A DNA stretch of 64,000 bases from Auanema rhodensis (Eukaryota > Animalia > Nematoda). The translations under genes and the position numbers were made by a program. Positions 26,131 through 57,985 of this stretch are shown here, piece by piece (positions within the stretch are counted from its first letter, which is position 1; each line of letters starts with the position of its first letter). Under the pieces are notes generated by a model. It was not told the DNA's origin, did no database searches, and worked only from the letters and a program-made list of their open reading frames with translations. The stretch is from the NCBI GenBank assembly GCA_964057225.1, contig OZ059895.1, forward strand, positions 13,268,001-13,332,000. The letters are read 5' to 3'.

Positions 26131-26460
26131 TGTCACGGTCAACGTGAAAATACGAACTTTATTGTGTTAACGTTTTGTTGTATTTTTTGTATTAACTCCA
26201 CCCCCTTTAACCATCTGGTGCCTCCCTATAAAAGGGAGAACCAAATGGTTAAAATTTTTATGTCTCACCAATTTTGTTTTGATTTTAGGAATTTCTTGGA
26301 AATTCGTAAATCAATCCACTTGTTCAATTTACTGTTGTTGCATTTTGTTGAATAAACCTTTCTTCATTTAACTTGTCTTAACGCATAATACCGCACTCAT
26401 ACGAACCGACTCCATACTTGGACTGATACTTGGAGGTAATAGTCCAGTTGTCAAACGACA
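26131..26460 (+). repeat. BEL 5' LTR (TGTC...GACA)
   Basis: Identical by eye to 36013-36342; TATAAAAG at ~26227 and AATAAA at ~26351. Confidence 0.95.
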
Positions 26461-26462
26461 TT

Positions 26463-26479
26463 TGGCGACCACGGCAGGA
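26463..26479 (+). promoter_or_regulatory. Primer-binding site, tRNA-Arg type
   Basis: TGGCGACCACGGCAGGA 2 nt after the LTR; complement of a tRNA-Arg 3' end (...CCTGCCGTGGTCG-CCA). Confidence 0.75.
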
Positions 26480-26515
26480 TAATTCAGTTGCTTACTGATA
26501 AGGAAAGTTTAAAAC

Positions 26516-26608
26516 AAAGGTTATATAGAACCGCCGGAGAAATAAATTCCGAAGAACACTGTGTTAAAGGTTATATAGAACCGCCGGAAAAATAAAATTC
26601 CGAAGAAC
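26516..26608 (+). repeat. Two ~42-bp direct repeats in the BEL leader
   Basis: AAAGGTTATATAGAACCGCCGGA(G/A)AAATAAA(A)TTCCGAAGAAC twice, 50-bp period. Confidence 0.85.
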
Positions 26609-26708
26609 TCGTAGAAAATCCGAGTTGACAAGAAATCACTTGTCAAGAAACAATAAGACGATAAAAATATCGCTGAATCTGAAATATCCATTGAGGAAGG
26701 CTAAAATA

Positions 26709-30194: not shown

Positions 30195-33100
30195 CTATCC
30201 CAAGACTAGAACTCATTGCCATACTATTAGGTATTATGTTAGCTGATAATATCACATCTACAACCAATCACCTTAAAACTGTACACGTAGCCAGTGACAG
30301 TAAGGTAGCCTTACATTGGATAGCTAACCATCAGAAAACTTTACCACCATATGTAGGCTGTCGCGTCGACAATGTAAGGAAGTATATAGATAAATTGAAG
30401 GAAAACAACATTAAAATCAAACTTTTTCATGTGAATGGTGATTATAACCCAGCCGATATTGGTTCTCGAGGAGCTTGTCTCCAAGAACTAAGTGATTCTA
30501 TGTGGATTAAAGGACCACAATGGTTAACCCAAACAAAGTCGCACATTGAAGAAATTGAATATGAGCCCATTTGGAATATAACAACCTTGATCGATACCGT
30601 TGAACAACAACAAATAACACAAATACCAGTTGAAGATATATTCAAATTACGTAGCAACAACTATACCTTACTGAAAACTATAGTTAAATTAAGTAAATTC
30701 TTGAGACATTGGATCATAAAAGTACATCCCACAGCTATAACAAGGTTAAATAAAGTAATGCAATTAGATGAAAACTGGCAAACTACAGCTAATGATATTG
30801 AGATTATAACCAAACTACTAATAAGTAAAGCACAACAGCATGTAACAATAGATCTCCTCACGAAAAAACATGAAGGTTTTGTATTTTTTCTCGATGAAGA
30901 AATAATCAGAGTTCGTAGTAGATTGAACAACTCGGAATTACCGTTTGAAACTCAAAATCCCATATATCTTCCAAGGGATTCTCCGTACACAGAACACATA
31001 ATTATGCATTTACACAGAGAATGCATGCACCAAGGAAGAGATTTTGTTCTAACACTCTTGCGTCAAAAATACTTTTTAAATAAACCATCAAGCATAGTCA
31101 GATCAGTTCTCAAAACATGCACAATCTGCAATAGATACAACGCTTTGCCGTTTGGAACGTCCTTAATGCCAGCATTGCCTAAGGATAGAGTAATTCTAAC
31201 AAAACCATTCATGAGTACAGGTTGTGACTTATTAGGTCCAATAACCATAAAGGATGGTAAAAAGATATTTATATGTCTGTTTACTTGTTTAGCTATAAGA
31301 GCTATACACTTAGAAATAGTTTTTGACCAATCAACAAAGGCATTCTTAAACGCTTTCGAAAGGTTCATTGGAAGAAGAGGTATTCCAGAAATAATACGAA
31401 GCGATAATGGAGGAAATTTCTTATTAAGTGCTAAAGTAATAGAATTTTACACAGAAAACCATGAATCTAAAAATGAAAAAACATTAACCAATTATCTTGC
31501 CGAAAAGAATATTAAATGGTACTTCAACACACCACAGGCTCCATGGAAAGGTGGAACATGGGAAAGACTAGTAGGACTAACAAAGTTAGCACTATACAAA
31601 ACAATTGGAAATAGATTAATGTCAATTGATGATATACATACAGTAATTGTAAAAATCGAAACAATTTTGAATACTCGCCCGCTTACACATCCGAACCCAT
31701 CCAACCTGAACATTTTGCCTATCAGACCTTGTGATTTTTTAAACCGTTCCATCAGGTTTACACTTTCTTCAAACGTATCGAATACCCGAATTTATGATAA
31801 AACTATCAATAGCAGGACAATACAAACTATAGAGCAAGCCATTGAAGCAATAGAGTTATCTAACGATGTAACTCAATTATTCTGGAAAAAATTCTATTCA
31901 GAGTATTTACTGTATCTTAGAGATATTTACAAACACAACAGAAAACAACCTGCAACGAACGCTAAGAAACCACAAGAAGGCGAAGTTATTATAATACAAA
32001 ATGAGGATTCAAGTAGAGGTAAATGGAAATTAGGACGCATAATAGAACTAATAAAAAGTGCAGATGGGGAAGTTAGATCTGCAAAACTAATAACTGGCAC
32101 TGGTCTCATAACAACTCGTTCATTAAATCACATATATCCACTAGAAGTGAGAAACGCAGAAGCAGCACCGTTTGCGTCAGAACCTCACTCAATGAGATAC
32201 AATAAAAAATACCAAGTGAATCCATTTTTAATCACCGGGACGGTAACACAAAAAGGAAATCGGGTTGAAAATATTGAAATTATTGAAAATACTCAAGAAA
32301 GTGAACAAAGTAACAATGTAATACCACTCGAAATCTATACACCCAACATTAATATCATCAACGACGCAGGAGACGAAAATGATGCTAATAATACGAACTT
32401 AGAACAAGAGGAAGATCAAACAAATGAGATAACTCTTCAAACCGAAAATGAATCCAAACCTTCAAATCTAAATAGATGGTTCAGAACAAAAACACAGGGT
32501 AGTCAAGCAGCGGTAAGAAGTTATTTTAAGAAAAATAAAATAAAAACAAATGTTCCAAAAGTAGCTCTTCTTGGAATAATTCCAACGATTGAGGCTACAT
32601 GCCAATCCTCTGAATTGCTTACAGCGGAAGTATTATATTTCCCACAATGTAATCCATTAACGACTTTGATAACATTTTTCATACCAATTATACTATTATT
32701 TACTATATTAGCAATTTGTAAAAGAGTATTGAAAGCTCATAAAAATGACCAATATTGGTATAAATTTTTAAATGATAATTGGCAAACGATACAAACCGAA
32801 GTTAGAAGTGGAAAACCTAATTCAAAAATATTAACAAGTTCAGACGATGTAGCCGTACAAAAGGAAAACACAGTAGCCACGAAATTTGACAATGTAACTC
32901 CAAAATGGAAAAATGATATTCCAGAAACTATTAAAATTCCAAATTACATGAGAACATCATCATTCACTTCATTACAATTATCGATAGCACTCATGGTATT
33001 ATTAATAACAGTGGAATCTTGTTCAAACTCACATATTAAGCATTCAATAAATATAATTTGCATTAATCGGACAAATTGTTATCAAGAATACGATAATGAA

Positions 33101-34540
33101 ATCAATTTCAATAAAGGCATAAGAGACGCTTGCTTAGAATTCATTTACCAAAATAAATCTATCGGTAAAATAGAAATAACGAAAAAACCAACAGAATACA
33201 TTTGCCAGAAAAGTACGCTATATTATACTCGAGAAAGCACAATTCAATACAAAACTCGATATTCCTGTTATGGAACAGGATCTTGTAATCACACTTGTGA
33301 AGCTATAAATCCTATTGGACAATTACAAGAATTTGATAAAGAAGAAGGACCAACACAAGTTGGTTGTGCTAGGCGATGTGGCTCTCTTTTCTGCGGATGT
33401 TGGTCTCTAGAAGACGGTTGCTCATTCTATCAAACTGAATTTAAACCAATCAATGAAATAGTTTATGAAATAGTAGAATGTGATTCTTGGGAAATGAATA
33501 TACCATTAGAGGTAAAGTATGATCTATTTAAACACAAAGCCAATATTAATATTCTTTTAAAACCATACGACACTGTTAATTTTCCAAACTTTAATATAAG
33601 CTCAATCTCCCATATTGTACCACCAACCCGATATTTAAACACCAAATATGCATTATCAACCATAAACAGTTATTACATGGAACCTCATACTATGAGTGAA
33701 GTAGCATGCAAAACCAAAGATCAAACTACAAATGAATTTAACTCTTGTAAAATACTGAAGTTATGTAACTGTAAAATATCAAAAAGGGAAGAGCTAACAT
33801 GTACCTGTCCATCTGATAATATTTTCAATCAGGCAAACTTATTACCAATGAACACCAAGAACACCCTAATTACCATGAAAGAAAACAAATTAACACTTAT
33901 TCCTCAAACTGATGAATCAACTGTTGTTCTTCAACTACAAGGGAATGTGTCGTCTCGTACCTTCCTGTACGACTTTCCTTGTCGACCGGAATTTAAAAAA
34001 CTTTCCGGGTGTCACAGCTGTAGAAGAACGGCTGTTGCCGAGTTTATGTGTATATCACAAAAGGATTCTTGGATCACAATGCAATGTAGTGAGAACATAT
34101 ACATGATTGAATGCGCCCCACACATGCCACTTACTGCTGTGGAATATTACTCAGAACATTCTGAAATCTATGAAGAATGCTTCGTAACATGTGCTAATGA
34201 AAAACACCGCGTGATCATACAAGGAACATTACAATGGGATAGTAAAATCCCAGATGTTGAAAAAACAATCATCAACATTGTGACAAATGCTAACACCTGG
34301 AGAAACATTTTGGATGTAATTAAAACAAATTGGGCATTATCATTATGCTTCCTCCTGATAACTGTTTTTATACCAGTATTATCTTATATAATAGGAGTAC
34401 AAGCAATAATTGTAATCATCATAATCATACAAAAATTAATCGTTCAGATGATAAAAATTGTAATGATCATTACATCATTACTGAGAAAAATGCTCAGGAA
34501 TCCTAGACACAGAGCTGAGTCTAGCACAAATAAAAATTAA
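30191..34540 (+). CDS. BEL Pol-Env, part 2 (RNase H, integrase, phlebovirus Gc-like class II fusion glycoprotein)
   Basis: LTIPRLEL, SDSKVALHW, NPADIGSRG RNase H; H-H-CTIC, DLLGP, SDNGGNF, APWKGGTWERLV integrase; Cys-rich Gc with fusion-loop-like CARRCGSLFCGCWSLEDGCSFY and C-terminal TM helices. Confidence 0.92.
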   Translation, partial: LTIPRLELIAILLGIMLADNITSTTNHLKTVHVASDSKVALHWIANHQKTLPPYVGCRVDNVRKYIDKLKENNIKIKLFHVNGDYNPADIGSRGACLQELSDSMWIKGPQWLTQTKSHIEEIEYEPIWNITTLIDTVEQQQITQIPVEDIFKLRSNNYTLLKTIVKLSKFLRHWIIKVHPTAITRLNKVMQLDENWQTTANDIEIITKLLISKAQQHVTIDLLTKKHEGFVFFLDEEIIRVRSRLNNSELPFETQNPIYLPRDSPYTEHIIMHLHRECMHQGRDFVLTLLRQKYFLNKPSSIVRSVLKTCTICNRYNALPFGTSLMPALPKDRVILTKPFMSTGCDLLGPITIKDGKKIFICLFTCLAIRAIHLEIVFDQSTKAFLNAFERFIGRRGIPEIIRSDNGGNFLLSAKVIEFYTENHESKNEKTLTNYLAEKNIKWYFNTPQAPWKGGTWERLVGLTKLALYKTIGNRLMSIDDIHTVIVKIETILNTRPLTHPNPSNLNILPIRPCDFLNRSIRFTLSSNVSNTRIYDKTINSRTIQTIEQAIEAIELSNDVTQLFWKKFYSEYLLYLRDIYKHNRKQPATNAKKPQEGEVIIIQNEDSSRGKWKLGRIIELIKSADGEVRSAKLITGTGLITTRSLNHIYPLEVRNAEAAPFASEPHSMRYNKKYQVNPFLITGTVTQKGNRVENIEIIENTQESEQSNNVIPLEIYTPNINIINDAGDENDANNTNLEQEEDQTNEITLQTENESKPSNLNRWFRTKTQGSQAAVRSYFKKNKIKTNVPKVALLGIIPTIEATCQSSELLTAEVLYFPQCNPLTTLITFFIPIILLFTILAICKRVLKAHKNDQYWYKFLNDNWQTIQTEVRSGKPNSKILTSSDDVAVQKENTVATKFDNVTPKWKNDIPETIKIPNYMRTSSFTSLQLSIALMVLLITVESCSNSHIKHSINIICINRTNCYQEYDNEINFNKGIRDACLEFIYQNKSIGKIEITKKPTEYICQKSTLYYTRESTIQYKTRYSCYGTGSCNHTCEAINPIGQLQEFDKEEGPTQVGCARRCGSLFCGCWSLEDGCSFYQTEFKPINEIVYEIVECDSWEMNIPLEVKYDLFKHKANINILLKPYDTVNFPNFNISSISHIVPPTRYLNTKYALSTINSYYMEPHTMSEVACKTKDQTTNEFNSCKILKLCNCKISKREELTCTCPSDNIFNQANLLPMNTKNTLITMKENKLTLIPQTDESTVVLQLQGNVSSRTFLYDFPCRPEFKKLSGCHSCRRTAVAEFMCISQKDSWITMQCSENIYMIECAPHMPLTAVEYYSEHSEIYEECFVTCANEKHRVIIQGTLQWDSKIPDVEKTIINIVTNANTWRNILDVIKTNWALSLCFLLITVFIPVLSYIIGVQAIIVIIIIIQKLIVQMIKIVMIITSLLRKMLRNPRHRAESSTNKN

Positions 34541-34668
34541 AACACTAATCTTACTGTAGTAATAAAAAAAAAAAAAAAAAAAAAAAACTTTATTAATTAG
34601 CTATAAGAACAGTTTAAAAACACAAAAAAAAAAAAAAAAAAAACAAAAACAAAAACAAAACAAAAACA

Positions 34669-35094
34669 CTATATACTTGAAATATCTGGATACCCCTCAC
34701 CATCATCGTCTGACATCTACAACAATACTTACATTCACAGTTAAAATATATAAGCTTACCTCCTCACGTTCGTGGTGGCGGGGGTTCTTTGCCCTGCAGA
34801 ATCTGCAGTTGGGAGGTAACGGCATCCTCGAGAACATGTAGATGAGCTGCTCCCGAGTTGGCTCGACTCCATCCTCCGGATAAAGCTCATCGTCTGTCAT
34901 CTGCAACAATACTGAGATAAAATAAAATAAACAAATAAATAAATAAATTAAATTAAATTAAAAAAAAATAATAAGCTTACCGGGCCCTCCCGTATGCGAT
35001 GAGTATCTTGCGCCTTGCATCGTTCGCATAGTTCATATGGACCGAGCTCGTCTTCTCCAATCTCCTCTTCAACCTGATACTGTAATTGTGACAT
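34669..35094 (-). CDS. Predicted 3-exon antisense accessory gene of the BEL element (exons 35094-34981, 34900-34760, 34716-34669; 100 aa, acidic, two CxxC-H modules)
   Basis: Each exon is preceded by TTGTTG(C/T)AG and starts with ATG; exons 1 and 2 end at GTAAGCTT donors; exons are 114, 141 and 48 nt (all phase 0); introns 80 and 43 nt. Confidence 0.65.
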
Positions 35095-35541
35095 CTGCAA
35101 CAATTACAACTATAAAAATAAAAAAAAAAAAAATAAAAAATAAAAAATAAAAATAAAGTCAAGAGGGAAGTACAAAAACTTCACGAATACAATAAAAATT
35201 AAATTACTAATCACACGTAGTACAATAGTAAAAAATATAAACAAAGCAAAAATAGGTCATAAAATAATATAAACAAAAGAAAATCACTACATATAGAAAC
35301 AAATGCAACAGTTATAAACAAACAAATCTTTTTATCAAGATCTTCAATCTTTGATAACATCAAGTTTATTTATCCGAATAATATACATAAAAAGTAATCC
35401 TTTGTACAGGCTTTTTTATACATTGTATCCGTAAACACATACTATTCTACAATAAACTAAGGGACGTTTATCATAGGTCAACCCACAGATGCGAACAAAT
35501 ATATAAAGAGGGAAACCATTGTTTTTCTCAATTCAGTGCTA

Positions 35542-36003
35542 ATGGATGAAATAACGTCCAATTTAAGTGAGAACACTTCCTTTGAGGAAGATCTCAAAAA
35601 TTATTCTCATCTACCCAACACCACTGCCAACCTAAGGCAGCTAATGGTTCTAGAGAAGAGGTTTTATGATAACCTCGCCAGCGCTGTCAACCACATTTCC
35701 GCGCGCCTGGATAACATCAACAACACACTGAATCTAAAGCTCGATAATTTAGCTGTTCAGACGGCTCCTAAAGCCTCCTGCATATTCTGCAACAAGCCTA
35801 CAGCTGATGGCCATCGTACAGCTGCTTGTCCGATTTACCCCTCGTCCCCAGAGCGTACCATACGCTTACACGAATTGGGACTATGCATAAAATGTTTGAA
35901 CCCAAAACATTCAGCAATGTGCGAAGTATCCTGCTATAAGTGCAAGGCCGATACTCACCATGGGGTGGTCTGTGGTGACGTCAAACGCAAAAGATATACA
36001 TAA
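35542..36003 (+). CDS. BEL accessory protein: coiled-coil plus triple zinc knuckle (Gag nucleocapsid-like)
   Basis: CIFC...H....C, CIKC....H....C, CYKC....HH...C mirror the Gag knuckles; upstream TATAAAG (~35503) and TTTTTCTCAATTCAG acceptor. Confidence 0.75.
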   Translation: MDEITSNLSENTSFEEDLKNYSHLPNTTANLRQLMVLEKRFYDNLASAVNHISARLDNINNTLNLKLDNLAVQTAPKASCIFCNKPTADGHRTAACPIYPSSPERTIRLHELGLCIKCLNPKHSAMCEVSCYKCKADTHHGVVCGDVKRKRYT

Positions 36004-36012
36004 TGCCGGGAA

Positions 36013-36342
36013 TGTCACGGTCAACGTGAAAATACGAACTTTATTGTGTTAACGTTTTGTTGTATTTTTTGTATTAACTCCACCCCCTTTAACCATCTGG
36101 TGCCTCCCTATAAAAGGGAGAACCAAATGGTTAAAATTTTTATGTCTCACCAATTTTGTTTTGATTTTAGGAATTTCTTGGAAATTCGTAAATCAATCCA
36201 CTTGTTCAATTTACTGTTGTTGCATTTTGTTGAATAAACCTTTCTTCATTTAACTTGTCTTAACGCATAATACCGCACTCATACGAACCGACTCCATACT
36301 TGGACTGATACTTGGAGGTAATAGTCCAGTTGTCAAACGACA
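36013..36342 (+). repeat. BEL 3' LTR
   Basis: Copy of 26131-26460, preceded by GCCGGGAA. Confidence 0.95.
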
Positions 36343-36398: not shown

Positions 36399-36723
36399 TT
36401 TCAATTTTTTTTAACGATCATACCACGTTGAAAGTACGCAATGCAGCTGATTTTCAATTTTATCTCTTCCGTAACAAATGTTTTTAATTTTCTAGCAGTT
36501 TTACTTAGATAGCTCAACCCAAGGCATCAAAATATCTTCAATCTTATTTCTATATTACAGTTATAAACCAGTAGTTTATGAACCTTCATCTTAACTTTAC
36601 TGTTTCTATCTATTTCCTATTGAAACAAACATTGTTTTAACACTATACAACTGTGAAACCTTTTTTAATTTATTGTATTTGGAGCTCATAAGATTTGATA
36701 TCATCGAAGAATTTAGATGTAAC

Positions 36724-37136
36724 TGTTCCATACGTGTCCTATAAGTAGAGCGATTGACAACGTCAATCGCTTATAAAACGGAACATTATAAAAACAAATA
36801 GCTGACGCTACATTTGAGAAACAGGAATTCAATGCAATAAAGAACGAACACTTTTTCATATTAAGTTTAATCAAAGAAAGCCCAATTCAAGCGGAACCAA
36901 GTTCCGCGGACCTGATATAACGACTTTTTATGCTCGTAAGGAAAACTATATAAGTTTTCCTTACGAGTCCTTTGGGCTGCGACTAGGAATCATTATGTAA
37001 CTTTTATTATTGTAATTTGTATACTTTATCATGAATAAACCTTTCTCTCTATACTCTTTATCATTTATATTTGGAAGAAAAGAAAGTAATTCCATGTGGT
37101 TACCCAGCCGGAACCCTGGGGAACCACCATGGAACG
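36724..37136 (+). repeat. 5' LTR (413 bp, TGTTCC...GGAACG), copy 1
   Basis: Matches 45184-45590, 46144-46556 (rc), 55090-55502 and 63546-63958. Confidence 0.94.
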
Positions 37137-37155
37137 TGGAGGTTCCGCCGAGATT
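37137..37155 (+). promoter_or_regulatory. Primer-binding site, tRNA-Gln type
   Basis: TGGAGGTTCCGCCGAGATT directly after the LTR; complement of the tRNA-Gln 3' end. Confidence 0.88.
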
Positions 37156-39623
37156 CGTCTATAACCGACGAATCTCTAAGAACCATATTTCGCTACATAA
37201 ATTTAATTTTGTTGTCTTTCATACATCTAATTAAAGAATTATATTTCGATTATGCTATATGAATTTAATTTGAAATCTTTCTCTTCTTTATTTCATTCAT
37301 TCAAAAAAACTTTATTTTGATTTTGATTCATAAATTAATACTGAAATCTTATATACATTTATTTAAAAAGATATATTTTGAAACAACTTAATTTTGAAAT
37401 TTTATATTCATTCATTTAAAAGAAACATTTCGATTTTTATCCATATTCTAAGATCTTTCATTCATTTTTGAGGAAAAACTTTGTTTATAACTATCATAAA
37501 TTAATTTGAAATTCTTTTATATTTATTCATTCAAAGAAAGGTATTTCGATATTTTTTTTTCTGTCAATCTTTTCTTTTTCTGTTTTTTTAATCAAAATCT
37601 ATTCTATCTCTCATAAAATTTTGTTATAAAGTTTCAAACAATTTTTGAATCAAAAATGAATTAATTTCTTTCATGAATCATCAAAAAATTCATTGTTTTA
37701 TATATATTAAAATTCATTAATTTCTATTCTATCCTTTAAAATGTATTACTCATTTATATATATATATATATTTATGTACAAAACTATTCTATACTAGTAC
37801 TATATTCCTACTATATTCCTACTATATTCCTATTTTATTTTTCTTTTATCTTCTTTTAAATTTTATCTTTTTCCCTCTCTTATTACTATTATTTTTTTTC
37901 TTCTTCCTAATATAACCCAGAAAACAGCCAAATAATTTTGAAATTTTTTATCTGAATCCCGAACCTAAGATTTACAATTTTGCATTTTGATCCTAAAAGT
38001 AGCCCGTGAGAAGCAATACCAGACTGTCTCGAGAACTGAGCGGAGGCAACCACTATTTTTGATATAAGACGTACGCATTCCTGATTTTGAAGATCCCTTT
38101 ACAGAATTAGTCGAGAATGAAAGTGTTAGAGTGGTCTCACCATGAAAAATCAGGGGAGCAGAATTTCGTTAAGGGAGCGATTTCTGTAATTTTTCATAGG
38201 CAAGAGAAGTCTGGGAAAGTGAATGTTCGAGGCCTGAGCACCTAATCTTGTCGAAAGACTGAAAGGGAATACTGCTTAGATCACCGTCGTATATTTCACG
38301 CCTATTCGAGAGATGGGAACTTGATCCTAGAAAGGGCGCACCGGTCACAGGCCCGTGTATGTACCCGATTGAGCAATTCTCCGTTAGAAGATTCGCTGCA
38401 GGCTGGCCCCCTAGCAAGCGTCACGCATACAACCCCATATTGCCTCTCACGTTGTATATATATTTTTATAAGTTTCGCATCGTTGGTATAATAATTTCCT
38501 TTCCAGGAAAACCAACAAGATGACGGACTCGAAGAGTAAAAATCCTCCGCAGGATAAAACAAATCCACAGAGCGCAGCCCCCCGGTAATGATACGCACGT
38601 CGAGCCAGTACTCGAGCAGAATCAAAGAAAGAGAGGACCTCCAAATGTTTATGAGCCGGACACGAAGCGCCGACCTACTGCTGCAAAGAAACCACCCGCT
38701 ATACCGGGTACCCCCGCGAAAAAAAATAGGCACAACAGCTATCAAAACTTCTCGCCACGCTATTACTCTTAGTAAAATTAAAACGTCTATTAACAAACAA
38801 ACTCCTAAACGCAATTCTAACGTTATCAAAAGCTCTAGCTATGTTTGCACAAATACTTCCCCTTGTAAAGATTATTCTCAAATATCATTTTCATACCCAA
38901 ATACTGCTATTCTTTCTTCTCCTCTTCCTCGAAATTCACCAAACTATCAGAGAAAATAGAAGAAAACGCAAGAAAAGAATTGTATGAGGAACGGAAGAAG
39001 GAGCCACCCACAATTAAGAAATGGAGTTCAGCACTTAAATTGGCATTGGGATTAGAAGATAATTCTCCTACAACGCCAGCAAAGCCTTATCATGTGCCGA
39101 TAAGGTATCACAGCACCATACCAGTAACAGAGCCGAAGAAGAGAGTTTCGAAGAGTCCGATCCCGGACCCAAACTTCGTGGCACCAACAGTACCAGTCAT
39201 CCATAAGAAAAGACCGTCAACAGTTATTGGGACTACAAGTAAGAAGCTAGAACAATAGTAAAAATCCATAATTTCTATATAAAAATCACAAAAAGTATAA
39301 TACCATTTTCATAATTTTCATCTAAACTTGAACCTATATATGATTTTTTTTTCTCATTTAAGTAAGACATAAAATTCTACACAAATTATTGTACATTTTT
39401 ATTTTTTCACTCTCATAAAAATATTGTATCAATAACCAAAATTTCAAAATAAAATTATACATCATACTTGGAATCTTTCAAAAATCACTGCAAAGTTTTA
39501 ATCAACAATCTTCATCATTTTTTTTCACCTAACTGGTCAAAAAGGAGGCGACAAAAAGGAAGGAACAGACCGACCTAGTTTTAAAAAGGATAAAAAGGAC
39601 AGAAAACAGTAACAAAGATAACA

Positions 39624-40226
39624 ATGTCCACCCAACTCCCTGAAGCCGTCGAAATTCCCCTCATGATGGCCAAAAAGAGATGGCTTTCAATTCAACTATT
39701 AGTAAGAGAATTGAAGCAGCTAGGCGCCAATACCATCGCCAACCGCCCCAGGAAAGAGAAGATCCTGAAAGAGTTAGTTCAAGGACTAACAAGAGCGAAC
39801 ACCAGTACTGAAACGCTCAAAATCCTATGTTACCAATACGACAAGGATCAACTGTCGGAGGTTGACCACTGCATAGGACCATGGACCAACACAGCAGGAG
39901 TCATCCGAGATGCCATTGCTGAACTAAGGGACCAACTAGGTTATTCACCTAGTTGCGATTCACCAGAACAGCAGACACCAAACTGGATTATTGCTGAGAC
40001 CCATTCGGCCTATCAAGAATGGAGCCTGCAACATTGCAGCGAACTGCCATCCACAGAGGCAAGAAAAAGCATTTTAAATGCTCTACAAATATTTCTGGCA
40101 TCACCAGCAACCACCAAGGAAGAAATGGAAAGAAAAACGGATTTATGCAACAAGACTATGGATCTTCTCCACGACCTAGGATCATCACCATTACCAGAGA
40201 TACACCAGTATTATGAAGAATACTAA
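39624..40226 (+). CDS. 200-aa hypothetical, probably helical protein of the non-autonomous element
   Basis: Clean ATG-to-stop ORF, GC-richer than its flanks, open in all three copies; no recognisable domain. Confidence 0.6.
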   Translation: MSTQLPEAVEIPLMMAKKRWLSIQLLVRELKQLGANTIANRPRKEKILKELVQGLTRANTSTETLKILCYQYDKDQLSEVDHCIGPWTNTAGVIRDAIAELRDQLGYSPSCDSPEQQTPNWIIAETHSAYQEWSLQHCSELPSTEARKSILNALQIFLASPATTKEEMERKTDLCNKTMDLLHDLGSSPLPEIHQYYEEY

Positions 40227-40479
40227 AAAGAACTTTTGAAAGATTCCCAGTATGATATATGATATATTATTTTGTAATTACATTGTTTTCCTTTATTTTT
40301 TTCTCATAAAATTGTTCTGTATTATCAGTATTCTTTTATTTTTTTGAAACATTTCATACAACTTTCACATTTGCATGGAATTTCACTTTCTCGATGTAGC
40401 TGAGGTCAGCTACTTTTTCGATATTAGGCATGTTCCATACGTGTCCTATAAGTAGAGCGATTGACAACGTCGATTGCTT
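40222..40479 (+). repeat. Duplicated pre-LTR segment plus first ~49 nt of LTR (upstream flank of the viral insert)
   Basis: Direct repeat of 44977-45232; truncated LTR begins TGTTCCATACG at 40431. Confidence 0.92.
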
Positions 40480-40524
40480 TTCTCCTTCTACTAGATTGAC
40501 ACTTTATTGTGTCACCTGGTAGTT

Positions 40525-43500
40525 ATGGATGACTGCACGGCCGTTTCGTCTAATAACTTAATTGTTATGGACGACACCGGTTACCGATCTGAAAAATTTC
40601 CAACAGATGATAAATGTATGGGAGACTTTCTTTTATCCGTATCAGCGGATAAAAATTTTGATCCCGTCCTTAAAAATGTAATCCTTAACAACCCAAATAG
40701 TAGTGTTGCAGCAGCTGTTAAAGCCAGTGTATTGGACAACCGTATGAAGTGAATTAATTTTGACTCTTCGGGACGAATTTTGATTAGATTACAACAGATT
40801 TTATCTAGTGAACAATTACAAGACATTCAAAAAAATTTTTCTTGTTTTAGAATTGAGACCAGTAACACCGATGGTGGACCTCATTCACTAGCTCGTGCCT
40901 TACGCACTGTAGCTTTTTACTACATAAGATACCAATTCTTTCGCTCTTTGGAAATGTTCAAGACATTAACACCCAGCGGTAAATACCATGTAGTACAAAA
41001 GGATATAGGATCAAATCCCATGCAGTTTGTTAATAGTGGCTTTTACTCCGTTCACTGTTGCTGTCCAGTTGTGAACACGGCTGACGTTTTTAGACGTAAT
41101 AATTACGTAGCTCAAGCAACTATGATTGTGAATAATTCCTTTGATAGCAATAAAGTTTATCATTGTAAAAAAATACTCTCTATGGATTCTAATTATATTT
41201 GTTCTCAACTTTCCCAGTACTGTAAGATAAAAGCCCCTTTTGTATCCTTTTTACATTCTGTTTATGATCTTTCTCCAGCTGACATTGTTCAGACCTTAGA
41301 TAACTGTGAAGCTATTAGGGCCGTCGGAGTTATATTATTCGACCCCGTTGTTTTAATTAAAAAAAATGGTATGTTACCAGATATTGACGCATCTTTTACC
41401 CGCTATAAACAGTTTGGAGTCGAATATATTAGATTCTCATTTGATAACGATGTTCAATTGTGTTACACTCATCGTTGGGACACTTATATTTTTATCATAA
41501 AAGCTTTTGTTCTAACTTCTACCACCTCTTTATATAGTTATGCGGTGGCTGGGCTATTACAATTTAAGAGTCATTTTTTCTTTGACATTGCAAGGATTGA
41601 CACTTCTATTCCCCGTCATATTAGCGGGCGTACTTTTAAATTGAACTCCGACAAAAAATCCTATATTCGTACATACGATTTTGATGAATCTTCATCTTTT
41701 TTTAAAACCAAAAATAAATTGAAATATGCTTATATCTGTGTATCAACTAGCTTGTTTGAAAACATGTTAAAACATGGTATGACCTTGGGTGAGGGTAAAT
41801 TCACCGTCAAAAATATCCTGTCAATGGGTATTTCTCTTGATAGTCGTGTTGTAGTCAATGGACAAACAATCTCCAGTTCTGACGAACGACATTCTGCTGA
41901 TACTCTCCGAATACTGGCTCATACTGTTTATATGCTAATTTATGTCAGCAATTACAGTTCAACTAAGACTATAAAGGAATTGACGGATGACATTTCTATT
42001 TCTAGATCTTTATCCTTATTTCCCCGGTTCACCCGTTTATTCTCCATGATGAAGTATTCCGACAAGACCGAAAACCTATTGTCCGCCATGTCTAAAGCTC
42101 ATGACAATGACCTTACAGTGTCATCAATGTCAGACCAGACTGTTTGCGACGACACATCTCGGATGAAGGGTTGGCGGGATTGTGTACTGGGCGGGACTCT
42201 TTATGATATAAAGATTTTCCGTAATATCGGTTATATTGATATTGACCGACAGGTTTCCCAACTTGTCCATCGCGAAGTACGGAAGACTATTGACCATCCC
42301 CTATATAAATTGTGGTTGCCTAATGACTTCGAATGTTCATCTGGTGAAGATTCTGATGAGTATTTTGATGCAGAAGAGGGTGTTATTGATACTTCGACGT
42401 CTTTTGAACCGGTATCTGTGTCGGTTTCACATTCCTGCCAAAGTAACGTTGAAATTATCCCCACTCCTGGTGACGGCGACTGTCTTTTTCACGCTTTGAG
42501 ACTTACGGGTGCTACTACCGATAGTCCACCATCAATTCGTGATAAACTTAGCCATGCCCCTAACATCGGTGAGAAGACAAAGAATCTTCTGTTAGCCGGT
42601 ATTAACGATCCCTCTAATGTTGATAATTGGGGAACAGATGAGCATATTGAGTTGTTCAGTGGTCTATACCGTGTTAAGATTTGCTTACACGATACTTCCA
42701 CTGGTCAGTTTCGACTTTATACTCCTCGTACGCTAGCATCTGAACAATTATATCACGTTCATTATACGCCTGGTCATTTTTCTGCTTTGAAAGTTTGTCC
42801 GAACCGTTTGATGGTATTAACATCTGACGATGTGTTCGATTGTAACGACGCTCCTTTGATTGATAAATTCAGAGACATTTATGACAAAACTTTTGAGAAT
42901 GTCTCTAATCGTAAACATAAGCTGATTAAAAACATAATGACTCCTACATCTAATATCGGCACTGGAGGATACATTTGTCGCTCGGCCTTAAAACTGTGCG
43001 AATTACACGCCTTTGGGCTGATCGATTTCTGTTATGTCGATATAATCGACTTATGTTCTAGCCCCGGAGGGTTTTCTGAATATTTATTACATAACTCTAA
43101 CAGTTTTATTCATGCTGTGCCTGGACCTAAATCCATGTTAATATTCGATAACCGTTTAACTCCCTATTGTGACCCTGTAACAAGATCGTCAAATTTGCTT
43201 GATGACGATATTCGAAACTCTATGGTTGAATTAATAAAGAAGAACACCAATGACAGACTACTTATTTTAGCTGACGGAGCCATATCTGAAACAGCTGTTA
43301 ATCCTCTTCTTCGTGCTGACAATAACTATGATCTCATTTATGCTGAAATCTCCACCGCATTCGATCTATTGCATGATAACGGCAAATTGGTTATTAAACT
43401 GTTTTACCCTTATGCTATTAGTACTCAGATTTTATTGCGCCGATTACTTTCGAGATTTGCGAAATTAACGGTTCTTTTCTTGTCTACCTCCACACCTATT

Positions 43501-44994
43501 TCTTGTGAATTTTATGTTTTATGTGAGGGGTATACTAAATCCGAAATTGTAAGATCTGATTTTAACTACACCGGGTTTTTCCGCTCCGTTTGTAACAATT
43601 TTGATATAAAAAGATCGGACGGATTAAATACCTATCTTCAATATAGTAAATATTACGACACTCTTGATAAAAAAATCAAGGATATATCCGGTAAGGACTT
43701 CCCTTTCAATCATTGCGATATTGAACTAGAATCCACATTACGCAAGTACCTAAAACCTCAAAAATTTTTGGGTTTATATGGTGGTGGTCTTGTAAGCTCA
43801 AAACCGTCATGTGATCCAGTCTTAGATCCAGATGTGTGCGAAACAGAGGATGTTATCTCTCGTCATCACGAGTTGTCCCCGTATAATTTAATTTGCGTTG
43901 ATCAGGGAATTGCAAAGCCCTTTATTTATTGGTACTTAAAGAAGAGGGTCGAGACACTTGGTGATTCCGATCTTCTACGTGCTGTTGAGACTTCCAACGA
44001 TGATTTTTATCGTCTGCATAAATACTTCGTCGCGAAAAAGTATACCGACATGGTATTATCTCAAGAAGCTATTAGATATTTTGAGAGATTGGTAAATTTC
44101 TCAATTGAATCCCATATTATTCATCCACCGTTGGATCCTGTTTTCTTATCTTTTGACAGACAATTGGGAATGTCTGGAAATTTAGGTGAAAACTTTTATG
44201 GTAACTGGTTGCGGCGTACTCCACTTACAGAATTGGAAGAGACTAAATTTACTGATGTATTACCAGAAATATCGGTTGTTAAACCAATATTTACGTCGAC
44301 ACCAGATGCTACCCAAGACACTACTTTCACCTTTAATGTAAAAAAAACCAAATTTCTCAAATTTTCGTATTTAAATCTATTTGTTGGTGGCGCCTTTTCC
44401 TATTATTGCTTAAATAACCTCTATAAACGTTCGTATTTTATAGATTCGCATCACAACCAATGTGTTAATTCTTTGTATAACTTATTATCAGTTCATAATG
44501 TATATAACAGTCTCCCTAAATCCATTTGTATGTCTAATATTATTTTTAATAATTTATGTAGAAATTCTGTAAAATATGATTTTATATCCTCTACAGTCGC
44601 ACAACAGGTTCACGTTGATTCAAAATTTAATGCCACCGCAATATTTTCGGGCATTGCAGCCCTGTTAAGATTTTTGACTGCCTTTCGAATTGACTCAACT
44701 GAGGAACTTGTTCCTAATGACTACAACGCCGGTAATACCATTAAAGATAAACACCATCCACACACTATGTTCTCAACAACTCTCTTCAACGGTGTTAGAG
44801 AATATATCGCTACCAAATTGCGTAAGTCTAGGGCTAATGAATCTGACACTTCAGAAAATGTGATCGATGATATCCAAAAAACGTCAGCAACTATCCCAAC
44901 TCCGATTTTAAATAATACTACACCCTTTAATGATGCAATTGAAGAGTATGCCGAATATTTGACATTATATTCTAAGACTAAAAAGGACTTTTGA
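40525..44994 (+). pseudogene. Endogenous viral element: 5' part of a nege/kita/virga-like (Martellivirales) replicase (capping MTase/GTase, OTU protease, FtsJ 2'-O-MTase); in-frame TGA at 40750; truncated before helicase/RdRp; copy 1
   Basis: PHSLARALR, KDIGSN, VHCCCP...DVFRR, LHSVYD, FSF...YTH match the tobamovirus-like MTase; PGDGDCLFHAL...WG...GHFSAL is an OTU motif set; RSALKL, DLCSSPGGF, LADG, VIKLF, SCEFY give the K-D-K-E FtsJ tetrad. ORFs 40507-40752 and 40780-44994 are in the same frame. Confidence 0.93.
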
Positions 44995-45183
44995 AAGATT
45001 CCCAGTATGATATATGATATACTATTTTGTAATTACATTGTTTTCCTTCATTTTTTCTCATAAAATTGTTCTGTATTATCAGTATTCTTTTATTTTTTGA
45101 AACATTTCATACAACTTTCATATTAGCATGGAATTTCACTTTCTCGATGTAGCTGAGGTCAGCTACTTTTTCGATAGTAGGCA

Positions 45184-45590
45184 TGTTCCATACGTGTCCT
45201 ATAAGTAGAGCGATTGACAACGTCAATCGCTTATAAAACGGAACATTATAAAAACAAATAGCTGACGCTACATTTGAGAAACAGGAATTCAATGCAATAA
45301 AGAACGAACACTTTTTCATATTAAGTTTAATCAAAGAAAGCCCAATTCAAGCGGAACCAAGTTCCGCGGACCTGATATAACGACTTTTTATGCTCGTAAG
45401 GAAAACTATATGAGTTTTCCTTACGAGTCCTTTGGGCTGCGACTAGGAATCATTATGTTATTATTGTAATTTGTATACTTTATCATGAATAAACCTTTCT
45501 CTCTATACTCTTTATCATTTATATTTGGAAGAAAAGAAAGTAATTCCATGTGGTTACCCAGCCGGAACCCTGGGGAACCACCATGGAACG
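45184..45590 (+). repeat. 3' LTR, copy 1 (407 bp)
   Basis: Differs from the 5' LTR by a 6-bp deletion and one substitution; followed by TAAC TSD. Confidence 0.94.
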
Positions 45591-45679
45591 TAACGTAGAA
45601 AATTACATAACTAACATGAAATTGGAAAAAAAACAATAACGAGGATAAGTATGTAAATCATTGAATATCAGGTATTTTC

Positions 45680-45798: not shown

Positions 45799-46016
45799 TT
45801 TCAATTTTTTTTAACGATCATACCACGTTGAAAGTACGCAATGCAGCTGATTTTCAATTTTATCTCTTCCGTAACAAATGTTTTTAATTTTCTAGCAGTT
45901 TTACTTAGATAGCTCAACCCAAGGCATCAAAATATCTTCAATCTTATTTCTATATTACAGTTATAAACCAGTAGTTTATGAACCTTCATCTTAACTTTAC
46001 TGTTTGTGTTTACTTT

Positions 46017-46054: not shown

Positions 46055-46745
46055 GAAAATATCTGATATTCAATGATTTACATACTTATCCTCGTTATTG
46101 TTTTTTTTCCAATTTCATGTTAGTTATGTAATTTTCTACGTTACGTTCCATGGTGGTTCCCCAGGGTTCCGGCTGGGTAACCACATGGAATTACTTTCTT
46201 TTCTTCCAAATATAAATGATTAAGAGTATAGAGAGAAAGGTTTATTCATGATAAAGTATACAAATTACAATAATAAAAGTTACATAATGATTCCTAGTCG
46301 CAGCCCAAAGGACTCGTAAGGAAAACTTATATAGTTTTCCTTACGAGCATAAAAAGTCGTTATATCAGGTCCGCGGAACTTGGTTCCGCTTGAATTGGGC
46401 TTTCTTTGATTAAACTTAATATGAAAAAGTGTTCGTTCTTTATTGCATTGAATTCCTGTTTCTCAAATGTAGCGTCAGCTATTTGTTTTTATAATGTTCC
46501 GTTTTATAAGCGATTGACGTTGTCAATCGCTCTACTTATAGGACACGTATGGAACATGCCTACTATCGAAAAAGTAGCTGACCTCAGCTACATCGAGAAA
46601 GTGAAATTCCATGCTAATATGAAAGTTGTATGAAATGTTTCAAAAAATAAAAGAATACTGATAATACAGAACAATTTTATGAGAAAAAATGAAGGAAAAC
46701 AATGTAATTACAAAATAATATATCATATATCATACTGGGAATCTT

Positions 46746-49700
46746 TCAAAAGACCTTTTTAGTCTTAGAATATAATGTCAAATATTCGGCATACTCTTCA
46801 ATTGCATCATTAAAGGGTGTAGTATTATTTAAAATCGGAGTTGGGATAGTTGCTGACGTTTTTTGGATATCATCGATCACATTTTCTGAAGTGTCAGATT
46901 CATTAGCCCTAGACTTACGCAATTTGGTAGCGATATATTCTCTAACACCGTTGAAGAGAGTTGTTGAGAACATAGTGTGTGGATGGTGTTTATCTTTAAT
47001 GGTATTACCGGCGTTGTAGTCATTAGGAACAAGTTCCTCAGTTGAGTCAATTCGAAAGGCAGTCAAAAATCTTAACAGGGCTGCAATGCCCGAAAATATT
47101 GCGGTGGCATTAAATTTTGAATCAACGTGAACCTGTTGTGCGACTGTAGAGGATATAAAATCATATTTTACAGAATTTCGACATAAATTATTAAAAATAA
47201 TATTAGACATACAAATGGATTTAGGGAGACTGTTATATACATTATGAACTGATAATAAGTTATACAAAGAATTAACACATTGGTTGTGATGCGAATCTAT
47301 AAAATACGAACGTTTATAGAGGTTATTTAAGCAATAATAGGAAAAGGCGCCACCAACAAATAGATTTAAATACGAAAATTTGAGAAATTTGGTTTTTTTT
47401 ACATTAAAGGTGAAAGTAGTGTCTTGGGTAGCATCTGGTGTCGACGTAAATATTGGTTTAACAACCGATATTTCTGGTAATACATCAGTAAATTTAGTCT
47501 CTTCCAATTCTGTAAGTGGAGTACGCCGCAACCAGTTACCATAAAAGTTTTCACCTAAATTTCCAGACATTCCCAATTGTCTGTCAAAAGATAAGAAAAC
47601 AGGATCCAACGGTGGATGAATAATATGGGATTCAATTGAGAAATTTACCAATCTCTCAAAATATCTAATAGCTTCTTGAGATAATACCATGTCGGTATAC
47701 TTTTTCGCGACGAAGTATTTATGCAGACGATAAAAATCATCGTTGGAAGTCTCAACAGCACGTAGAAGATCGGAATCACCAAGTGTCTCGACCCTCTTCT
47801 TTAAGTACCAATAAATAAAGGGCTTTGCAATTCCCTGATCAACGCAAATTAAATTATACGGGGACAACTCGTGATGACGAGAGATAACATCCTCTGTTTC
47901 GCACACATCTGGATCTAAGACTGGATCACATGACGGTTTTGAGCTTACAAGACCACCACCATATAAACCCAAAAATTTTTGAGGTTTTAGGTACTTGCGT
48001 AATGTGGATTCTAGTTCAATATCGCAATGATTGAAAGGGAAGTCCTTACCGGATATATCCTTGATTTTTTTATCAAGAGTGTCGTAATATTTACTATATT
48101 GAAGATAGGTATTTAATCCGTCCGATCTTTTTATATCAAAATTGTTACAAACGGAGCGGAAAAACCCGGTGTAGTTAAAATCAGATCTTACAATTTCGGA
48201 TTTAGTATACCCCTCACATAAAACATAAAATTCACAAGAAATAGGTGTGGAGGTAGACAAGAAAAGAACCGTTAATTTCGCAAATCTCGAAAGTAATCGG
48301 CGCAATAAAATCTGAGTACTAATAGCATAAGGGTAAAACAGTTTAATAACCAATTTGCCGTTATCATGCAATAGATCGAATGCGGTGGAGATTTCAGCAT
48401 AAATGAGATCATAGTTATTGTCAGCACGAAGAAAAGGATTAACAGCTGTTTCAGATATGGCTCCGTCAGCTAAAATAAGTAGTCTGTCATTGGTGTTCTT
48501 CTTTATTAATTCAACCATAGAGTTTCGAATATCGTCATCAAGCAAATTTGACGATCTTGTTACAGGGTCACAATAGGGAGTTAAACGGTTATCGAATATT
48601 AACATGGATTTAGGTCCAGGCACAGCATGAATAAAACTGTTAGAGTTATGTAATAAATATTCAGAAAACCCTCCGGGGCTAGAACATAAGTCGATTATAT
48701 CGACATAACAGAAATCGATCAGCCCAAAGGCGTGTAATTCGCACAGTTTTAAGGCCGAGCGACAAATGTATCCTCCAGTGCCGATATTAGATGTAGGAGT
48801 CATTATGTTTTTAATCAGCTTATGTTTACGATTAGAGACATTCTCAAAAGTTTTGTCATAAATGTCTCTGAATTTATCAATCAAAGGAGCGTCGTTACAA
48901 TCGAACACATCGTCAGATGTTAATACCATCAAACGGTTCGGACAAACTTTCAAAGCAGAAAAATGACCAGGCGTATAATGAACGTGATATAATTGTTCAG
49001 ATGCTAGCGTACGAGGAGTATAAAGTCGAAACTGACCAGTGGAAGTATCGTGTAAGCAAATCTTAACACGGTATAGACCACTGAACAACTCAATATGCTC
49101 ATCTGTTCCCCAATTATCAACATTAGAGGGATCGTTAATACCGGCTAACAGAAGATTCTTTGTCTTCTCACCGATGTTAGGGGCATGGCTAAGTTTATCA
49201 CGAATTGATGGTGGACTATCGGTAGTAGCACCCGTAAGTCTCAAAGCGTGAAAAAGACAGTCGCCGTCACCAGGAGTGGGGATAATTTCAACGTTACTTT
49301 GGCAGGAATGTGAAACCGACACAGATACCGGTTCAAAAGACGTCGAAGTATCAATAACACCCTCTTCTGCATCAAAATACTCATCAGAATCTTCACCAGA
49401 TGAACATTCGAAGTCATTAGGCAACCACAATTTATATAGGGGATGGTCAATAGTCTTCCGTACTTCGCGATGGACAAGTTGGGAAACCTGTCGGTCAATA
49501 TCAATATAACCGATATTACGGAAAATCTTTATATCATAAAGAGTCCCGCCCAGTACACAATCCCGCCAACCCTTCATCCGAGATGTGTCGTCGCAAACAG
49601 TCTGGTCTGACATTGATGACACTGTAAGGTCATTGTCATGAGCTTTAGACATGGCGGACAATAGGTTTTCGGTCTTGTCGGAATACTTCATCATGGAGAA

Positions 49701-51215
49701 TAAACGGGTGAACCGGGGAAATAAGGATAAAGATCTAGAAATAGAAATGTCATCCGTCAATTCCTTTATAGTCTTAGTTGAACTGTAATTGCTGACATAA
49801 ATTAGCATATAAACAGTATGAGCCAGTATTCGGAGAGTATCAGCAGAATGTCGTTCGTCAGAACTGGAGATTGTTTGTCCATTGACTACAACACGACTAT
49901 CAAGAGAAATACCCATTGACAGGATATTTTTGACGGTGAATTTACCCTCACCCAAGGTCATACCATGTTTTAACATGTTTTCAAACAAGCTAGTTGATAC
50001 ACAGATATAAGCATATTTCAATTTATTTTTGGTTTTAAAAAAAGATGAAGATTCATCAAAATCGTATGTACGAATATAGGATTTTTTGTCGGAGTTCAAT
50101 TTAAAAGTACGCCCGCTAATATGACGGGGAATAGAAGTGTCAATCCTTGCAATGTCAAAGAAAAAATGACTCTTAAATTGTAATAGCCCAGCCACCGCAT
50201 AACTATATAAAGAGGTGGTAGAAGTTAGAACAAAAGCTTTTATGATAAAAATATAAGTGTCCCAACGATGAGTGTAACACAATTGAACATCGTTATCAAA
50301 TGAGAATCTAATATATTCGACTCCAAACTGTTTATAGCGGGTAAAAGATGCGTCAATATCTGGTAACATACCATTTTTTTTAATTAAAACAACGGGGTCG
50401 AATAATATAACTCCGACGGCCCTAATAGCTTCACAGTTATCTAAGGTCTGAACAATGTCAGCTGGAGAAAGATCATAAACAGAATGTAAAAAGGATACAA
50501 AAGGGGCTTTTATCTTACAGTACTGGGAAAGTTGAGAACAAATATAATTAGAATCCATAGAGAGTATTTTTTTACAATGATAAACTTTATTGCTATCAAA
50601 GGAATTATTCACAATCATAGTTGCTTGAGCTACGTAATTATTACGTCTAAAAACGTCAGCCGTGTTCACAACTGGACAGCAACAGTGAACGGAGTAAAAG
50701 CCACTATTAACAAACTGCATGGGATTTGATCCTATATCCTTTTGTACTACATGGTATTTACCGCTGGGTGTTAATGTCTTGAACATTTCCAAAGAGCGAA
50801 AGAATTGGTATCTTATGTAGTAAAAAGCTACAGTGCGTAAGGCACGAGCTAGTGAATGAGGTCCACCATCGGTGTTACTGGTCTCAATTCTAAAACAAGA
50901 AAAATTTTTTTGAATGTCTTGTAATTGTTCACTAGATAAAATCTGTTGTAATCTAATCAAAATTCGTCCCGAAGAGTCAAAATTAATTCACTTCATACGG
51001 TTGTCCAATACACTGGCTTTAACAGCTGCTGCAACACTACTATTTGGGTTGTTAAGGATTACATTTTTAAGGACGGGATCAAAATTTTTATCCGCTGATA
51101 CGGATAAAAGAAAGTCTCCCATACATTTATCATCTGTTGGAAATTTTTCAGATCGGTAACCGGTGTCGTCCATAACAATTAAGTTATTAGACGAAACGGC
51201 CGTGCAGTCATCCAT
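46746..51215 (-). pseudogene. Endogenous viral replicase fragment, copy 2
   Basis: Near-identical to copy 1 (NPFL vs NPLL; KKVF vs KKDF); same in-frame stop. Confidence 0.93.
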
Positions 51216-51513
51216 AACTACCAGGTGACACAATAAAGTGTCAATCTAGTAGAAGGAGAAAAGCAATCGACGTTGTCAATCGCTCTACTTATAGGACACG
51301 TATGGAACATGCCTAATATCGAAAAAGTAGCTGACCTCAGCTACATCGAGAAAGTGAAATTCCATGCAAATGTGAAAGTTGTATGAAATGTTTCAAAAAA
51401 ATAAAAGAATACTGATAATACAGAACAATTTTATGAGAAAAAAATAAAGGAAAACAATGTAATTACAAAATAATATATCATATATCATACTGGGAATCTT
51501 TCAAAAGTTCTTT

Positions 51514-52116
51514 TTAGTATTCTTCATAATACTGGTGTATCTCTGGTAATGGTGATGATCCTAGGTCGTGGAGAAGATCCATAGTCTTGTTGCATAAATC
51601 CGTTTTTCTTTCCATTTCTTCCTTGGTGGTTGCTGGTGATGCCAGAAATATTTGTAGAGCATTTAAAATGCTTTTTCTTCCCTCTGTGGATGGCAGTTCG
51701 CTGCAATGTTGCAGGCTCCATTCTTGATAGGCCGAATGGGTCTCAGCAATAATCCAGTTTGGTGTCTGCTGTTCTGGTGAATCGCAACTAGGTGAATAAC
51801 CTAGTTGGTCCCTTAGTTCAGCAATGGCATCTCGGATGACTCCTGCTGTGTTGGTCCATGGTCCTATGCAGTGGTCAACCTCCGACAGTTGATCCTTGTC
51901 GTATTGGTAACATAGGATTTTGAGCGTTTCAGTACTGGTGTTCGCTCTTGTTAGTCCTTGAACTAACTCTTTCAGGATCTTCTCTTTCCTGGGGCGGTTG
52001 GCGATGGTATTGGCGCCTAGCTGCTTCAATTCTCTTACTAATAGTTGAATTGAAAGCCATCTCTTTTTGGCCATCATGAGGGGAATTTCGACGGCTTCAG
52101 GGAGTTGGGTGGACAT
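51514..52116 (-). CDS. 200-aa hypothetical protein, copy 2
   Basis: One amino-acid difference from copy 1 (TEGRK vs TEARK). Confidence 0.6.
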   Translation of the reverse strand: MSTQLPEAVEIPLMMAKKRWLSIQLLVRELKQLGANTIANRPRKEKILKELVQGLTRANTSTETLKILCYQYDKDQLSEVDHCIGPWTNTAGVIRDAIAELRDQLGYSPSCDSPEQQTPNWIIAETHSAYQEWSLQHCSELPSTEGRKSILNALQIFLASPATTKEEMERKTDLCNKTMDLLHDLGSSPLPEIHQYYEEY

Positions 52117-57700: not shown

Positions 57701-57985
57701 TATGATTTTTTTTTCTCATTTAAGTAAGACATAAAATTCTACACAAATTATTGTACATTTTTATTTTTTCACTCTCATAAAAATATTGTATCAATAACCA
57801 AAATTTCAAAATAAAATTATACATCATACTTGGAATCTTTCAAAAATCACTGCAAAGTTTTAATCAACAATCTTCATCATTTTTTTTCACCTAACTGGTC
57901 AAAAAGGAGGCGACAAAAAGGAAGGAACAGACCGACCTAGTTTTAAAAAGGATAAAAAGGACAGAAAACAGTAACAAAGATAACA

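Follow-up and report, generated by a model that had tools for sequence, protein, structure and literature searches.

The 64,000-nt stretch of contig OZ059895.1 (assembly GCA_964057225.1, positions 13,268,001 to 13,332,000; hereafter the window, whose own numbering is used below) is, by its repeat spacing, an array of 529-nt 5S rDNA units throughout, interrupted by three kinds of long terminal repeat (LTR) element. One of these is an LTR-bounded unit of 8.87 kb (36724-45590), termed here the loaded unit, which carries ~4.5 kb resembling the front of open reading frame 1 (ORF1) of a nege-like positive-sense single-stranded RNA (+ssRNA) virus. We propose, with a probability of about 0.8, that an LTR element without pol took up this viral segment via two template switches of a borrowed reverse transcriptase (RT) and then integrated in a 5S spacer with a 4-bp duplication of its target.

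An LTR element without a recognizable pol

The loaded unit is present three times in the window, as copies A (+), B (-), and C (+), of which A is described here, with all its features on the + strand. Its 5' LTR of 413 nt (36724-37136; TGTTCC...GGAACG) is followed directly by a primer-binding site starting with TGG (37137-37154), which we take to be of the tRNA-Gln type, and the unit is closed by a 3' LTR of 407 nt (45184-45590) that differs from the first by one substitution and one 6-nt gap. TAAC borders the unit on both sides (36720-36723, in the 5S spacer, and 45591-45594), and an empty 5S unit has a single TAAC at this place. With this target-site duplication, the two LTRs, the primer site, and a short, imperfect purine tract make up the cis signals of the unit. 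The body (37155-40218) consists of an AT-rich leader and short ORFs: none of the four scanned has a Pfam match (0/4), and neither gag nor pol was recovered for the tested ORFs by Pfam, homologue, or Atlas matching, a highly diverged gag being possible. The largest body ORF (39624-40226; 200 aa) has no homologue among 181 candidates and no Atlas match, and its predicted model is helical and of low confidence (mean predicted local distance difference test score, pLDDT, 57); it is bracketed by an inverted repeat of ~46 nt (84%; 39440-39486 and 40234-40279). A preliminary description of this DNA had already recognized the LTRs, the TAAC duplication, the primer site, and the lack of pol, and its placement of the unit in 5S rDNA is borne out by the single-TAAC empty unit and by 30 Rfam matches to 5S rRNA in the window.

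The insert and its viral domains

The insert (40480-44973, +) runs in the same sense as the element, each of its ends being uncertain by ~7-13 nt, likely due to microhomology. Its sequence indicates that it is the front ~4.5 kb of the ORF1 of an undescribed nege-like virus, cut before the helicase. The first 75 codons of the viral ORF (40525-40752, +) begin with an ATG at 40525 and end in an in-frame stop (40750-40752) common to all three copies; the downstream piece of the broken ORF is a long open frame of 1413 codons (40753-44994, +). A database protein, P0011, aligns on either side of the stop with 56% identity over 181 residues. The single ORF of 1404 aa envisaged in the preliminary description thus holds for the long frame and not for the ORF as a whole, which starts at 40525, is broken by the stop, and is not intact. 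With its reading frame interrupted in this way, the insert would in all likelihood be a passive fossil.

Three domains are discernible in the long frame, all on the + strand. The first, an alphavirus-like capping methyltransferase/guanylyltransferase (MTase; 40816-41865), is detected by Pfam (Vmethyltransf, E = 9.8e-25) with its catalytic residues kept (His44, Asp84-x-Gly86, and Arg114 in long-frame numbering), and the predicted fold of the viral protein (mean pLDDT 76.6) matches chikungunya nsP1 (E = 4e-18) and also resembles cap/rRNA 2'-O-methyltransferases. The second is an OTU-type cysteine protease (42436-42783), for which the Pfam match is weak and under the cut-off (E = 0.009); its Cys577 and His675 are invariant in 36/36 aligned proteins, and the alignment profile, compared with structures, matched nairovirus and coronavirus-type OTU/replicase proteins (E from 7e-6 to 1e-3). 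The third is an FtsJ-type 2'-O-methyltransferase (42970-43533; Lys747, Asp841, Lys882, and Glu919) with a Pfam E-value of 5.7e-16. The domain content originally assigned to these ~4.5 kb is hence upheld, for the OTU protease via its two invariant residues and the profile matches. The rest of the open frame (43534-44973, +) shows no helicase motif; we infer its viral origin from the continuity of the frame and from shared contigs. Neither helicase nor RNA-dependent RNA polymerase (RdRp) sequence occurs anywhere in the window.

Affinities of the captured virus

A HMMER search with the first 500 residues of the long frame returned 340 proteins at E <= 0.001, and 13 of the top 15 relatives also carry RdRP_2 and helicase domains, the other two being fragments. 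Named matches among the 30 looked up include Drosophila River Almond nege-like virus, Wuhan house centipede virus 1, Loreto virus, Tomato fruit blotch virus, and Bemisia tabaci nege-like viruses 2 and 3. The best relative, P0001 (2488 aa), is 30% identical over residues 8-954 with a collinear MTase-OTU-FtsJ arrangement, and the nearest full-length relative reaches ~30-35% identity. A word-based protein search with residues 1-1000 gave no match in a set of 7993 candidates, 777-2473 aa in length (the best relative being 2488 aa long and the others distant), and a search of viral contigs yielded no confirmed relative. The viral, nege/kita-like nature claimed at the outset is thus corroborated, as the homology check led to nege- and kita-like replicases and not to cellular proteins. 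A cellular origin of the FtsJ domain was considered and rejected, because this domain is collinear with the viral ORF1 proteins.

P0011, a 196-aa fragment from a 1004-nt contig, shares 68% identity with the beginning of the long viral frame and points to a much closer relative of the captured virus, or another endogenous viral element (EVE), in another sample. In an IQ-TREE phylogeny of the MTase region (36 rows, chosen by us from 71) the insert and P0011 form a pair (SH-aLRT 100), to which P0001 and P0004 are weakly joined (89), and the deep forks lack resolution; it does not group with Loreto virus, Fort Crockett virus, or Tomato fruit blotch virus, the one named kitavirus. A link to Fasciohepa virus 2 and a virus from a rodent sample, seen with FastTree (support 0.81), was lost in IQ-TREE, and we draw no helminth clade. 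Nege/kita-like viruses (Martellivirales) have the ORF1 order MTase, FtsJ, helicase, RdRp (PMC7154061). The insert agrees with such an ORF1 in presenting the MTase followed by FtsJ, with the OTU motif in between and the catalytic residues kept, and departs from it in its 20-35% identity, its truncation ahead of the helicase, and its own branch with the fragment P0011. On sequence grounds it would be nege/kita-like without being assignable to a family, and on the MTase tree it appears to be neither a negevirus proper nor a member of Kitaviridae.

The duplication at the insert borders and the reads

The insert is flanked by two copies of a 261-nt segment of the carrier, which on both sides comprises exactly the 3' untranslated region (UTR), the purine tract, and the LTR start. 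The left copy (40219-40479, +) ends with the first 49 nt of the LTR (40431-40479); the right one (44974-45232, +), 95.8% identical to the left, runs into the 3' LTR. In each of the three units, four substitutions and two indels (40232-40467) separate the two, while copy A's 5' LTR and copy C's 3' LTR are identical. This divergence of the duplication next to identical LTRs indicates that the viral segment was already present when the unit integrated. At the switch points, mismatches are clustered (left, two in the last 8 nt, p ~0.008), a pattern that suggests microhomology between virus and element there.

The unit was sought in sequencing runs, whose type was assigned by guess ('DNA?'). Nine runs from three studies contain 80-90% of the sampled words, and one of them may be the source sample; none of the listed word-holding runs is RNA, and three possible RNA runs share 0.05-0.08. 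Four runs, labelled X1, X4, X8, and X10, were examined by contig, and junction-crossing contigs occur in three of the four, from three studies. The left junction is spanned in X1, X4, and X8 by a contig (40442-41292) with zero differing letters and 38 element bases, and the right junction in the same runs by contigs ending at 45016, i.e., 43 bases past 44973, where the overlap of 30 bases past the last mismatch is borderline by the 31-base rule. In X10 the insert is covered in scraps, at shallow depth; since this depth is too low, the scant viral cover is not read as absence. The contigs thus sustain the earlier claim of capture by a pol-less LTR element, in that both virus-element junctions are seen in short-read data.

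Body contigs are much deeper than insert contigs (448-681 vs 13-15 in X1, 666-789 vs 37-40 in X4, and 42-239 vs 9-16 in X8), contig depth not being equivalent to copy number. Removing the insert and one copy of the duplication leaves a unit of ~4.1 kb, and the depths hint at an abundant empty family of this size. Apart from small indels, the listed body contigs track the window sequence, and none of them is joined to a pol gene. Compared with the deepest contigs, the 3' part of the loaded unit (LTR and right duplicate) differs at 10/636 sites and the body at 11/2764 (Fisher p 0.002). This comparison is moderate evidence and suggests that two element templates, together with viral RNA, lie behind the capture.

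Minus-strand synthesis in LTR elements runs from the 3' LTR toward the primer site, and the following series of events would account for the observed arrangement. A germline particle of a Ty3/gypsy-type helper would have packaged RNAs of both the element and the virus. From one element RNA, the minus strand would first have taken in the LTR start, the purine tract, and the 3' UTR. A short homology would next have let it cross to the viral RNA at a point upstream of the helicase, along which it would have continued almost to the viral 5' end. A second switch would have returned it to an LTR start, now on another, slightly different element RNA, of which the same 261 nt would have been copied once more. 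An integrase would have inserted the loaded product, and a later DNA-level fold-back rearrangement would have given copies B and C. A double switch of template by LTR elements is on record for host mRNAs (PMC5131818) and, in Aedes cells and mice, for viral RNA (PMC6797480, PMC8048955, 10.1101/127498, PMC3205384).

Three copies from one insertion

Copy B (46144-54601, -) is inverted and lacks the 5' LTR and most of the primer site, yet has the same 3' 5S flank; copy C (55090-63958, +) is complete, with the TAAC site and flanks as in copy A. The copies show pairwise substitutions of ~0.1%. Their shared 5S site and flanks identify them as DNA-level duplicates forming an inverted triplication, and not as signs of the re-mobilization envisaged in the preliminary description, and three independent insertions were rejected since all three copies (3/3) lie at one site. 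A and B meet at a strandless fold-back junction (46006-46016) with 11 inserted bases that partly match the adjacent flank, a pattern resembling end-joining repair. B and C have two changes in common that are absent from A, and these, with the partly flank-copied inserted bases, favor a real rearrangement. The one position on the insert side that sets B and C jointly apart from A has the letter of A in the contigs, and B and C may hence be absent from those samples. That B and C, known from the assembly alone, are an artefact is a serious though not the favored possibility.

Weighing alternative histories

Several observations count against the proposed capture or weaken parts of it. The last 480 residues of the viral frame have no homologue, the best match among the fetched proteins being at E = 0.3. 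The LTR of the loaded unit is just 71% identical to that of the Ty3/gypsy element described below over 76 nt outside the LTR end. With regard to the two templates, the right duplicate taken alone differs from the deepest contigs at p 0.025, the contigs used, from two runs, are mosaics that represent assembled majority sequences, and a greater variability of LTRs might account for the difference. Lastly, none of the listed contigs bridges the 5S-LTR junction, and the insertion site therefore rests on the assembly.

The alternative that fares best is an earlier capture, after which the loaded element retrotransposed at least once as a non-autonomous vector, its LTRs being reset while the internal duplication diverged and the stop arose. 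It would explain why the two duplicates have drifted further apart than the two LTRs, and is compatible with the retention of all cis signals by the loaded unit and with the occurrence of LTR-captured host retrocopies of Drosophila at more than one site (PMC5131818). Nevertheless, all three copies in the window are at one site, and the viral part lies on contigs of low, flat depth (9-16 in X1 and X8, 37-40 in X4). Furthermore, the left duplicate matches the deepest contig at the substitution sites and the right does not, which is better explained by two templates than by age; we accordingly deem an earlier capture unlikely. Considerably less plausible is that DNA repair placed a separately made viral cDNA in an empty element that had integrated before, with 261 nt of target duplicated in the process. 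Viral fragments in Aedes can integrate without LTR parts (PMC8048955), and a repair-type rearrangement is indeed present near the locus. However, a duplication made by repair should be of later date than the two LTRs, whereas the observed one has diverged further than they have; moreover, the insert lies in the element sense, begins near the viral start codon, and has its left junction 49 nt into an LTR copy. Most improbable of all is that an assembly error or contamination produced the loaded unit. Tandem arrays with long inverted repeats, such as this one, do defeat assemblers; set against this are the nine runs of three studies with 80-90% of the sampled words, the junction-spanning contigs of X1, X4, and X8 without differing letters, and the unexpectedness of an RNA virus joined to LTR sequence in DNA libraries.

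Neighboring elements and the likely helper

Template-switch capture by a pol-less element calls for a helper, and the window holds an intact Ty3/gypsy element (3962-15427, +) that represents a candidate helper lineage. It has identical LTRs and a 4-bp duplication, and encodes gag, a class III fusion-type env, and pol in one frame of 2915 codons, with the env between gag and protease (Pfam Monjiviricetes_fusion, E = 9e-13; Glycoprotein_B, E = 2e-8). Its LTRs begin and end with CG rather than TG..CA, and it sits in an A-run of the 5S spacer. The loaded unit and this element have in common an identical run of 16 bases across the LTR end and the primer site (4293-4308 in the latter), the four bases before the LTR, and the length of the target duplication. 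These shared traits, none of which is found with the BEL element of the window, make a helper of the Ty3/gypsy lineage likely, although the true helper may be of another family than 3962-15427. In 4/4 runs a contig parts from the element ~21 nt after the LTR begins (window 40451) and continues in related but different sequence; this could be a sister LTR family with the same purine tract and is a candidate for the true helper. The Cer1 family has a tRNA-Pro primer site, TGGGGGCCG (PMC10309623); membership in it was rejected for both the loaded unit and the Ty3/gypsy element, which have a different primer site.

The BEL/Pao element (26131-36342) lies inside a 5S gene, flanked by a 5-bp duplication; its LTRs, of 330 nt, are identical, and its env is of the phlebovirus G2 type (E = 5e-49). 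Its gag-pol is split across two overlapping frames near 30143-30194, and it has an extra Cys/His-rich ORF of 180 codons (35461-36003). It was rejected as the helper on account of its TG..CA ends, different primer site, and 5-bp duplication.

Host and genomic setting

The highest-identity relatives of the Ty3/gypsy element are from Caenorhabditis and Diploscapter (46-53% over RT-integrase), most of them with the same fusion-protein domains, and thereby indicate a rhabditid nematode host; pseudoscorpion rows outscore them, yet are 33-34% identical and belong to multi-copy gene models. The nematode host named previously thus receives indirect support from this neighbor, and the loaded unit likely resides in a nematode genome. 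Each 5S unit repeats ~30 nt of the gene start directly 3' of the terminator (e.g., window 1495-1525). Three LTR elements that are unrelated or distantly related occur in this one short stretch of the array, at unit positions ~68, 443, and 482, all with near-identical LTR pairs and oriented in the sense of the 5S genes. The cluster suggests recent activity, and it is possible that LTR elements target the Pol III repeats of the 5S array.

Significance and relation to known systems

The insert records exposure of the germline of a likely nematode host to a nege/kita-like lineage, and the product of the capture is visible whole, with both junctions, the duplicated segment, and a carrier without its own enzymes. 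The likely empty family and the candidate helper in the same array render copy-choice capture and EVE-based small-RNA immunity testable in nematodes. A bolder idea, that the loaded unit is a working, heritable antiviral locus still movable by a Ty3/gypsy helper, we consider a long shot. Were it correct, an LTR-driven transcript through the tail-to-tail copies A and B would fold into several kb of double-stranded RNA with 4.5 kb of viral sequence. This would feed nematode RNAi against nege-like viruses, as a nematode counterpart of mosquito EVE immunity, and the antiviral locus would have been built from capture and inversion inside 5S rDNA.

Surveys of nematode viruses and EVEs report virga-, toga-, partiti-, and orbi-like sequences (PMC11445058, PMC12548735). 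Our literature search found no nege-like EVE in a nematode LTR element, although the same search missed the Bursaphelenchus precedent discussed below.

Diverse virus-LTR and host-LTR hybrids offer points of comparison. The LCMV-IAP recombinants of mice (via the review PMC3205384) and the Aedes virus-LTR hybrids and EVEs (PMC6797480, PMC8048955, 10.1101/127498) likewise show non-retroviral RNA fused, through copy-choice recombination, with sequence of an LTR retrotransposon of the same polarity. These comprise episomal reads, piRNA-cluster fragments, or somatic events, whereas the loaded unit is complete, lies in the germline, and has duplicated its target in the 5S rDNA. LTR-mediated retroposition of host mRNA (PMC5131818) also features LTR-flanked cargo, a double switch at short similarities, and possible secondary mobilization; in contrast to the 15/15 Drosophila cases described there, in which part of the element was replaced, the loaded unit lost nothing, has 261 nt duplicated, and carries viral RNA as cargo.

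The closest parallel is eBxnv-1, a nodavirus RdRp situated between two LTRs with a primer site and purine tract in a Bel/Pao element of Bursaphelenchus xylophilus, for which Cotton and colleagues proposed copy-choice capture and showed expression (PMC5177903). This nematode precedent of a +ssRNA virus gene between LTRs means that the rarity attributed to the present case in the preliminary description was overstated. The two share a nematode host, a +ssRNA virus between LTRs, a primer site, a purine tract, and low copy number. The carrier of eBxnv-1, as portrayed in that report, is a degenerate Bel/Pao element with pol remnants, truncated LTRs, and few relatives; that of the loaded unit, by contrast, is Ty3/gypsy-related, without a pol match, and has full LTRs and a target duplication. 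Its virus is nege-like, its empty family is apparently abundant, and both its junctions are readable. What is new relative to this precedent is the virus group, the pol-less carrier, and the junctions that keep a trace of the capture, while the route is the same as in eBxnv-1.

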